Assembly (NCBI GenBank): GCA_013697295.1
Contig: JACCXF010000202.1
Span: 4,027 to 68,026, forward strand
DNA from: Actinomycetota bacterium
GTDB lineage: Bacteria > Actinomycetota > CADDZG01 > WHSQ01
Length of the DNA stretch: 64,000 nt
Direction: 5' to 3'
Shown here: positions 56,799-59,134 of the stretch, piece after piece
Numbering within the stretch: position 1 is the first letter of the stretch
How the letters are laid out: every line of letters begins with the position of its first letter
Made by a program: the position numbers and the translations under genes
The notes under the pieces: model-generated
What the model was told of the DNA's origin: nothing
Seen by the model: the letters and a program-made list of their open reading frames with translations, nothing else
Database searches by the model: none

Positions 56799-57779
56799 TC
56801 ATGTACGGGGGCCGACAACTTCGGCCGCCGCTTCCAATAACTTGTCCTGACGCGAAGCAACTTCGGTCCCCTGATCCGTCATCTCGAAGGCCTTCCGGAT
56901 GACGTGGTCGATGACGTTAGTCAAGGTCGCGTCCAGGTCGATATGAGTGATGACTGGGACGCCGCGCATCCGAGCCGACGACAACATGTACTTCTGCAGC
57001 CTTCTGATCGCCTTGAAGTTGTTGAGATACCGCTCGCCGGGCCGCTGGCGCGACTCACGCGTCCGCCAGTAGAAGTGGCTGCGGTGCAGCTCCTCGTCCT
57101 CGACCGTCACCAACAAGGGCACGATGACCGCGTCCTTGTGCTCGACTCCCTCGAGGAACCCGGGCACCAGATGCGTTCCCTCGACGATGAGATCGGTCCC
57201 TTCGGCGATGGCGCGGTCGATCAACGCTTGAGCGCCGACGGCCACCGTCGAAGCCTGCTCCCTGAACCCGATGATCAACTTGTCTCCCGAGTGTGGGATC
57301 GGCTGACGAACCGCCTTGTCGGCTTCGAATGAAGAGGCATACAGGGTGGGGAACATCTCACGTGTGAAAGCGCTGCGGAGCACCTCGCGGACTGCATCCG
57401 TGGAGATGACCCGGGTGATGCCTAGGCGCGTCGCGAGCTGGGTGGCGATGGTGGACTTGCCCACGCCCGTAGCGCCACCGATCAAGATGATGAGCGGCGC
57501 GTCGAGATCCGCTACGGACTGCCACTTGATGAAGGCCTTGGCGTAATCGTCTCCGACTTCGCGCCGCAGAACCTCTAGCGTCAGGTCCTGCAACTCGTCC
57601 TCTGACACGGTTGCCACATCGCGAGCGATCAGTTCCTGCTCGACCATGTTGGCGATGCCGTAGGATTGGATCGGCCCCAGGCCCGTCACGGCGAGCGACG
57701 AGGCGGCCAGGCCTTTCGAGTAAGGAAGCCCATGTTCGTGCTCCGAGATCAGGATCCGCTTGCGGCGTTTCTCGTTCAC
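56799..57779 (-). CDS. putative 2-phosphoglycerate kinase (ATP-cone plus P-loop kinase)
   Basis: From GTG 57779 (GTGA overlap with the upstream stop): [22 protein letters not shown], then [34 protein letters not shown]. Fits my recollection of COG2074 proteins. Confidence 0.55.
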   Translation of the reverse strand: [326 protein letters not shown]

Positions 57780-59134
57780 GCAGCCGGCTCTCCGTAGCGC
57801 GCGTCGGCCAGATCCGCGGCCCGGACGACAGCAGAGGTCACGTCGTCCCCGTCGATGCCACATGGAGCGTTGTCCATGTACACAACCTCGAGCCCCCCAT
57901 CCAGCGCCTTCCTCGTCGCGACGTCTATACCCGCCGCCTTAACCTCGCACAACAGAATGTCTGCGCCTCCTCCAAGTTCACCGATCTCCGCCTCCAACCG
58001 GGCCCTATCGGAGAGTGAATGAGTGATGCCGACCACCCTGCACCCATGAACCCGTTCGAGATGACTTGTGATCGACTCCGCCGCCTTCTCTGGAGCGGTC
58101 GTCGCTACAAACACGTCCGCCCCATCCACAGAAGCTGTCGGGGCCGGACGAAAAACGGTGCGAACAACCTGGATATCGCCCCCGGCTCCCTCTCCCTTTG
58201 TCTTCGGTCGAAAAGATCGCTGTATCGAAGAAACGATCGAAGAGATCCGGGAGGGCGAACCGAATGGGCTCTCACACATAGTAACGACCACGGTGTCGCA
58301 GAGCAACAATCGGTACAACCCCATGTACCCCACCAGGTATTCCTCGGGGATCGTCGCAGGAACCACCAGGATGGTCGCGTCGGCGTGGGCGGGGGGGATG
58401 GCCGACCCGGAACCCTCCAGTAACAGGAGGTCCCCGGGTAGATCGTTCGCCATCGCGATCCCCTGAGCGACATTGGAGTTCTCGACGGCCCCCGCCAAAC
58501 CCCCTCCGCAGCGCCGACACCCGACCGTCGGCACGCGGGCCAGCAGCGCGTCCTCGATGTAGTCGGACGCCGCGTGCCTCCCGGAATCGGCCAGGGCCAG
58601 GAGCTGGGTGGGAGTCAGCGAGATCTCGTCGCCCCTCAATATCTCTGGTTCGGGAGGCCCTCCTCGACCCATGGCCACCACGATGGGGTGGCGCCCCTCA
58701 TCCACTAGAGCTCTCGCTGCGAACCCGGCGACCGCGGTCTTGCCGGTTCGCTTCCCAGTCCCGATCACGGCGACCGAAGGTTTCTTCGCGAGGTGCGGGC
58801 GGGGCGGTGGGGAAAAGATGAAATCCGCGCCCTCGTAGGGGACGCCGTTGCTAAGGGCCACCCCCGCCAGGGCGTGGCGGCGACGGTAGTCCAGGACCGG
58901 TTCGTCCGACAGATCCAGAACCGCATCGGGCTGAAGCTTCATGAGTGAAGCTTCGAGGAGCCGGAGCGGGTCGGGCCCGCTCTCGACCGGCACACCGCCG
59001 AGCTGCGTGAGGCCGCCCGGGCCGATCTTCTCCACGCCGCCCACCAGAACGCACCCCGCGACCGAATGGCCGGAGACCCTCAAGTCCGACAAAGCGGCCT
59101 CGATGACCGGTGGATAGTGCTCGCCGTCGACCAC
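57776..59134 (-). CDS. cpgS: putative cyclic 2,3-diphosphoglycerate synthetase
   Basis: [11 protein letters not shown] N-terminus and P-loop GTGKRTGKT; about 452 aa from GTG 59134. The ATG at 59290 would overlap the divergent gene by 44 nt and adds a non-homologous-looking leader. Confidence 0.5.
   Translation of the reverse strand: [452 protein letters not shown]

Follow-up and report, generated by a model that had tools for sequence, protein, structure and literature searches.

We analyzed a 64,000-nucleotide stretch of DNA from an Actinomycetota bacterium (contig JACCXF010000202.1; the whole stretch is referred to here as the window), which carries on its minus strand two adjacent genes whose products resemble the two enzymes of the cyclic 2,3-diphosphoglycerate (cDPG) pathway, namely cDPG synthetase (cDPGS, or CpgS) and 2-phosphoglycerate kinase (2PGK). 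Open reading frame (ORF) calls and reading of the sequence identify them as two long minus-strand ORFs within positions 56799-59290. The cDPGS homologue occupies positions 57776..59149 if it is read from a conserved ATC codon at 59149, which gives a product of 457 aa, whereas gene callers start it at the GTG at 59134, which gives 452 aa; an earlier sequence-only reading of this region, made from the letters and their ORFs, had put the product at about 450 aa. The 2PGK homologue, a COG2074-type protein of 326 aa matched by the NCBIfam model NF003259, occupies positions 56799..57779, and 56799 is the final base of its stop codon. The two genes have the four bases GTGA in common at 57779-57776 (sequence context GAGCCGGCTGCGTGAACGAG), where the TGA of cDPGS (57778-57776) overlaps the GTG of 2PGK (57779-57777) in an arrangement typical of translational coupling. 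The coupled minus-strand pair described in the sequence-only reading is therefore real, and all the peptides quoted there were found in the translations of the two genes. The same architecture was obtained by independent gene calls in public contigs encoding an identical 2PGK protein, in which a 326-aa product overlaps by 4 nt with a 452-aa upstream gene. Since a 4-nt overlap of the type [A/G/T]TGA between the two genes recurs in approximately 26 of 47 related bacterial loci, it is more than a chance feature.

The first gene product was compared with the Protein Data Bank (PDB) using phmmer. Three matches were obtained (8ORK, 8ORU, and 9SXB), all of which are titled cyclic 2,3-diphosphoglycerate synthetase. 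The match to the crystallised enzyme of Methanothermus fervidus (8ORK/8ORU) has an E-value of 5.9e-107 and aligns residues 1-443 of the query with residues 10-452 of the chain; in a MAFFT alignment, the two proteins are 44% identical over the whole length. The match to 9SXB has an E-value of 1e-93 and 41% identity. Pfam and NCBIfam scans returned no family for this protein, but the Pfam copy that was scanned lacks PF27272 (CpgS_N), so this result is not evidence against membership. PF27272 is precomputed on all close database homologues.

The active site of the M. fervidus enzyme has been described in detail (PMC10690619): 2,3-diphosphoglycerate (2,3-DPG) is bound by K145 and R146 together with E45 from the partner subunit, Mg2+ is coordinated by T150 and D208, K149 and K406 provide charge shielding, and the nucleotide is contacted by E305, P335, T353, and E404. 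In an alignment of 82 sequences, the window protein has the M. fervidus ligand residue at every position that can be mapped, namely E35 (E45 in M. fervidus), K36 (K46), K128 (K145), R129 (R146), K132 (K149), T133 (T150), and D191 (D208) and, among the nucleotide residues, E288 (E305), T346 (T353), E397 (E404), and K399 (K406). P335 of the published list has no exact equivalent in this alignment, where the numbering gives F335 and an invariant P337. The mapped residues are kept in 47-50 of the 50 bacterial homologues; E35 and K36, which correspond to the partner-subunit contact E45/K46, are found in all 50, and D191, the counterpart of the Mg2+ ligand D208, in 49. Furthermore, the Walker A motif (P-loop) GTGKRTGKT at residues 125-133 (58736..58762, minus strand), which contains the K128 and R129 equivalent to the 2,3-DPG-binding residues of M. 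fervidus, is invariant in 82 of 82 bacterial and archaeal sequences. By alignment, the two-domain layout and the Walker A consensus GTGKRxGKT are the same as in the M. fervidus enzyme, while the window protein differs from its archaeal counterparts by an insertion of approximately 10-13 residues near residue 310. These comparisons support the assignment of the first gene to the cDPG synthetase family as a full-length homologue with all mappable active-site residues. The sequence-only reading had assigned it to the same family, and neither the Walker A motif nor any mapped ligand is missing.

A different identity could nonetheless be envisaged for this protein, i.e., an arginine synthetase of the ArcE type, or another LpxK/UreG-like P-loop member, mislabelled by annotation transfer. 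ArcE (TK2200 of Thermococcus kodakarensis) is a distantly related ATP-dependent P-loop enzyme whose similarity to cDPGS homologues is reported to be low, and it is widespread in bacteria including Actinomycetota (PMC11032458). However, the window protein resembles authentic cDPGS much more closely than this: its similarity extends from end to end (E 6e-107), taking in the N-terminal domain specific to cDPGS as well as the 2,3-DPG ligands, whereas that of ArcE is described as low in the same study. The gene context also differs, as ArcE, whose substrates are arginine and citrulline, has arcB and arcC as neighbours, while the gene in the window lies next to a 2PGK homologue. Both the degree of similarity and the gene context led us to reject the ArcE identity, which we regard as scarcely credible.

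As for the second gene, its best NCBIfam model is NF003259, '2-phosphoglycerate kinase', with an E-value of 5.8e-95 over model positions 4-300 of 306. The model for mevalonate-3-phosphate 5-kinase (NF008996) reaches 98.6 bits with a cut-off of 250, far under the 2PGK models. The P-loop (57450..57479, minus strand) is covered by a Pfam AAA_33 match of 33.2 bits, above the cut-off of 27, and across 29 aligned homologues only A103 and V106 vary within it. Consistently, the AlphaFold (AF2) model of the protein (predicted local distance difference test, pLDDT, 75.7) has a P-loop small-molecule kinase fold, and the top Foldseek matches of the model are adenylate (NMP), UMP/CMP, shikimate, and gluconate kinases; a phmmer search of the PDB gave only a spurious P-loop match. 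Proteins 70-77% identical to it are labelled 2-phosphoglycerate kinase by JGI and in some NCBI records, although the naming of the bacterial relatives at NCBI is inconsistent (2PGK, ATP cone domain protein, zeta toxin family, or hypothetical). The ATP-cone proposed in the sequence-only reading would correspond to a candidate ATP-cone-like N-terminal domain at approximately residues 7-90 (57510..57761, minus strand), but its PF03477 match (E 3.4e-5, 24.7 bits) falls just under the gathering score of 25.8. In many close homologues PF03477 is among the precomputed domain matches, and NCBI names some of these proteins 'ATP cone domain-containing protein'; in the predicted model the N-terminus follows the order strand-helix-helix-strand-helix-helix, which would be compatible with an ATP-cone. 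At the level of homology, these results support the second gene as a member of the 2-phosphoglycerate kinase family, in agreement with the COG2074 assignment proposed earlier. With M. fervidus 2PGK and COG2074 (NF003259) it has in common a full-length model match, the P-loop kinase core, and possibly the ATP-cone-like N-terminus; its score, discussed below, is one point at which it departs from them.

The start codon of cDPGS was examined by aligning the upstream regions of related loci (L001-L022 and L025-L027). Conservation upstream of the gene begins at a Shine-Dalgarno-like run and fades further upstream. This run, which is GGAGG, GGGAG, or GGGGG, precedes the start position by 5-7 nt in every close relative; in the window it is GGGGG (59155..59159, minus strand), 5 nt upstream of the ATC at 59147..59149. 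The codon that follows the run leads, in the aligned loci, into the sequence R-Y-[L/V]-x-V-[V/I]-D-G-E-H-Y. It is ATC in the window and in 13 distinct related loci, ATG in two, and GTG, TTG, and ATT in one each. Three distinct loci of the window clade (L019, L007, and L012) have no in-frame ATG, GTG, or TTG upstream of the invariant DGEHY motif, and three Aquicultor-type loci are likewise without a canonical start, with ATA placed after GGAGGTG. Judging from this alignment, the real start of cDPGS is probably the non-canonical ATC at 59149, five codons upstream of the GTG at 59134, which would be a further difference from the M. fervidus gene. The conservation of a near-cognate start codon suggests that initiation may be deliberately weak or regulated. 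Public gene models of cDPGS differ at the N-terminus, with lengths of 438, 452, and 504 aa (L001/L019 = P0002, L084, L085, and L087); the 438-aa calls (e.g., P0002) omit the invariant DGEHYPPV motif, probably because the start codon is non-canonical.

The cDPGS family is compact but populous. A protein search recovered relatives of the window protein in at least 7988 clusters (90% identity) at E ≤ 1e-10. The best 120 of these are 62-98% identical to it, and many already bear the name '2,3-diphosphoglycerate synthetase [Actinomycetota bacterium]' or 'cyclic 2,3-diphosphoglycerate synthetase'. In a full HMMER search of 1.84 billion representatives clustered at 50% identity, 208 matches were obtained at 1e-30 and 598 at 1e-10. 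When one genome per GTDB species is considered, at least 580 species-level genomes encode a cDPGS relative. Among the best 80 there are many metagenome-assembled genomes (MAGs) of Actinomycetota, including Ca. Aquicultor, Euzebyaceae, and Acidimicrobiia, as well as Bacillota, Poribacteria, Methanopyri, Ca. Methanolliviera, and Methanobacteriaceae, the latter including mesophilic genera. The window itself is matched at 98-100% by 'Actinomycetota bacterium isolate SVA bin1', which represents its species.

Conservation of the locus was then assessed by tblastn of the window proteins against 81 loci, of which about 50 are bacterial and mostly labelled Actinomycetota. The order thrC-thrB-(membrane protein)-cDPGS-2PGK-(transaldolase)-rho is kept in nearly all of the bacterial loci, down to 45% cDPGS identity, and so is the adjacency of the two pathway genes, both of which occur together in the window. 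This linkage is what would be expected for consecutive steps of one pathway and therefore supports the pathway reading. The sequence-only reading had implied that the pair is rare in bacteria; instead, nearly all of these genomes, from several lineages, have it in the same place on the chromosome. Moreover, the pair is widespread and already annotated automatically by NCBI, JGI, and Pfam (PF27272), and is not a singular anomaly of this genome.

The arrangement differs outside this group. In the Methanobacteriaceae loci (L028-L078) there is no 2PGK within 6 kb of cDPGS, unlike in the window, where the two genes are joined by the 4-nt overlap; the mesophilic Methanobacterium, Methanobrevibacter, and Methanosphaera are among those encoding a cDPGS homologue in this way. 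On the other hand, Ca. Methanolliviera (L040) has an adjacent, overlapping pair in the bacterial style, and in two Poribacteria-like loci (L036 and L073) 2PGK lies upstream of cDPGS. A contig from a MAG labelled Burkholderiales (L054, CAZCVW010000075.1) carries an Acidimicrobiia-type thrC-...-cDPGS-2PGK block and groups with actinobacterial sequences in the tree, and has probably been mis-binned. Thermococcales (Thermococcus, Pyrococcus, and Palaeococcus) almost universally encode a cDPGS-family protein (P0264-P0376), one of which has the 2025-26 PDB entry 9SXB.

In actinobacteria, the canonical gene order is thrB-rho. The pair interrupts this arrangement and the characterised enzymes are archaeal, so that one way to account for it would be that the pair was recently acquired by horizontal transfer from a methanogen and placed between thrB and rho; an archaeal-type origin had been implied by the sequence-only reading. 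Several lines of evidence argue against such an event. The GC content of the two genes (0.62-0.65), their GC content at third codon positions (GC3, 0.75-0.81), and their codon usage match those of the flanking core genes and cannot be distinguished from them. The insertion point and the gene order are kept in nearly all of the approximately 50 bacterial genomes, including Acidimicrobiia, Euzebyaceae, and Ca. Aquicultor, whereas the two genes are not adjacent in Methanobacteriaceae. Comparison with archaeal homologues in unrooted neighbour-joining (NJ) trees with 100 bootstraps grouped the window protein with Actinomycetota: the window clade has 100% bootstrap, and a wider clade of 36 sequences has 96%, all of its members being labelled Actinomycetota or subgroups thereof except for the MAG labelled Burkholderiales, possibly misbinned, mentioned above. 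The window protein is only 41-47% identical to any archaeal sequence. A recent transfer was rejected on these grounds of synteny, composition, and phylogeny, is effectively refuted, and appears to us very improbable. Because of the conserved synteny, the native composition, and the clade support, the pair can therefore be considered an old, vertically inherited part of these genomes. Its ultimate origin is not fixed by the unrooted tree, in which the monophyly of the methanogen sequences has 55% bootstrap and the deeper branches are without resolution. In the first NJ tree, 9SXB grouped with Bacillota, which raised the suspicion of a bacterial enzyme; this grouping had only 19% bootstrap, and a homologue search assigned 9SXB to Thermococcus. 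Consequently, there is no characterised bacterial enzyme in the cDPGS family.

Taken at face value, the locus would be a native, vertically inherited operon making 2,3-DPG and then cDPG in a non-thermophile, and we hold this interpretation of the sequence data to be likely. By analogy with the two-enzyme pathway defined previously (PMC10690619; PMC1224877), the 2PGK homologue would use ATP to phosphorylate 2-phosphoglycerate to 2,3-diphosphoglycerate, and the cDPGS homologue would then form the cyclic phosphoanhydride in two SN2 steps, as has been proposed for M. fervidus cDPGS (PMC10690619). In the second of these, attack by the 3-phosphate would release Pi and close the intramolecular phosphoanhydride to give cyclic 2,3-diphosphoglycerate. 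The 4-nt overlap of stop and start codons would couple translation, and both enzymes would therefore be made together.

Some observations weigh against this interpretation. cDPG is said, in reviews and in the structural study of cDPGS, to occur only in hyperthermophilic methanogens, where it is read as a thermoprotectant (PMC10690619). In the open-access literature searched, the papers mentioning cDPG synthetase all concern archaea and there is no report of cDPG, cDPGS, or 2PGK in a bacterium, an absence that is not proof; this agrees with the statement of the sequence-only reading that the pathway has not been demonstrated biochemically in a bacterium. As to the kinase, the window protein scores 318.2 bits, below the NF003259 equivalog cut-off of 343, and there is no solved 2PGK structure with which its substrate-binding residues could be compared. 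COG2074 is listed in Thermus and Deinococcus (PMC1274311) and, like these bacteria, mesophilic methanogens have 2PGK homologues without cDPGS (PMC2686161; PMC1274311). Finally, close cDPGS homologues are carried by Thermococcales, as shown by the clustering of 9SXB with Thermococcus; these proteins belong to the same family and have the same invariant ligand residues, but their hosts are archaeal hyperthermophiles that are not known to accumulate cDPG. Family membership is thus no guarantee of product.

Alternatively, both proteins could be true family members, while the bacterial pair makes something other than an accumulated pool of cDPG. For instance, 2PGK could supply 2,3-bisphosphoglycerate as a primer for a cofactor-dependent phosphoglycerate mutase or as a regulator, and the cDPGS homologue could act on a related phospho-acid or interconvert a small signalling or storage pool. 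The points just listed on the literature searched and on the 2PGK score lend themselves to this explanation, as does the wide spread of the cDPGS family among Thermococcales, Bacillota, and Poribacteria, none of which is known for cDPG. In addition, the presence of 2PGK in mesophilic methanogens has been described as 'suggesting a different function' (PMC2686161), and the M. fervidus cDPGS is reversible, for which a role in energy storage was proposed (PMC1224877). However, all residues contacting 2,3-DPG in the crystal structure are invariant across bacteria and archaea, which argues for the same substrate, and two genes so strictly linked, with coupled translation, are easier to reconcile with the two steps of one pathway than with separate roles. 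We therefore consider a different product unlikely, and retain an operon for 2,3-DPG and cDPG as the preferred interpretation.

If cDPG is made, it could serve as a trianionic compatible solute, as a phosphate or energy store, or as a protectant against desiccation or oxidative stress. A role as thermoprotectant would be less plausible because the host lineage shows no sign of thermophily: unlike M. fervidus, the window host is an uncultured, soil-type actinobacterium with high GC that is apparently non-thermophilic, and the isolate labels suggest a non-thermophilic habitat for its lineage. A broader proposal can be put forward, about whose correctness we are evenly divided. According to this, cDPG would not be an extremolyte specific to hyperthermophilic archaea: non-thermophilic Actinomycetota living in soil, desert, and groundwater, together with some other bacteria, would have it as a widespread and anciently inherited metabolite. 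The compound would be produced from a core-genome operon next to rho, whose first gene is read from a conserved AUC start that sets output at initiation, and would act primarily in phosphate or energy storage or in desiccation or oxidative protection. Transfer between the domains could have gone in either direction, and the family may be bacterial in origin.

These results reveal a mismatch between databases and literature on where cDPG occurs, since much of the Actinomycetota carries a conserved, native two-gene operon; judging from the isolate labels, the carriers would live in soils, deserts, and groundwater. Should the bacterial enzymes be active, the known distribution and the presumed role of cDPG would need revision, and soil actinobacteria would be found to contain a phosphate-rich solute so far overlooked. 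In that case mesophilic cDPGS and 2PGK could also be used for the biotechnological production of cDPG, for which only the M. fervidus enzyme serves at present (PMC12136491). The locus represents a bacterial member of known enzyme families; it exposes a gap that can be tested and does not amount to a system of a new kind.

Two further genes follow the pair in the same direction. A short-type transaldolase/fructose-6-phosphate aldolase (56099..56782, minus strand; TIGR00875, 259 bits with a cut-off of 245.95; Pfam TAL_FSA, E 1.9e-54) starts 16 nt downstream of 2PGK; its position is kept in the window clade and in the Aquicultor-type clade, and it is absent from the Acidimicrobiia loci. The rho ORF (54458..56095, minus strand) starts 3 nt after the transaldolase stop and forms the downstream end of this tightly packed block. 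Gene calls of rho in the relatives have the Rho_RNA_bind and ATP-synt_ab domains, and rho follows the pair in most bacterial loci whose DNA reaches that far. Thus, cDPGS, 2PGK, transaldolase, and rho look like one transcription unit, and the transaldolase probably belongs to the same operon as the pair. In the region 53800-60200, no sigma-70-type promoter was found and the terminator-like matches fall inside coding regions; neither scan is informative in an actinobacterium of high GC content. No match was obtained when the whole window was scanned with Rfam and for tRNA genes.

On the other side of the pair, a divergent gene on the plus strand (59250..60017) encodes a conserved membrane protein of approximately 255 aa without family assignment, which is 42-98% identical to the proteins at the same position in the window clade, where it is called as 254-256 aa in relatives. 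It gave only a weak bPH_10 match below threshold, has a strongly charged C-terminal tail, and nothing in the evidence ties it to the pathway; we regard it as context only. The wider window is the usual actinobacterial core region, with hom, thrC, thrB, rho, rpmE, prfA, prmC, tsaC, and glyA. The N-terminal part of the Rho protein contains, at approximately residues 40-160, a long insertion of low complexity in which R, G, Q, and D abound, as is typical of actinobacterial Rho. Lastly, the longest ORF for ribosomal protein L31 (53952-54365, minus strand; 137 aa) is over-extended, as the L31 domain starts at residue 52 (MRQGIHPEY...); the real gene encodes approximately 86 aa, as called in the relative L001.

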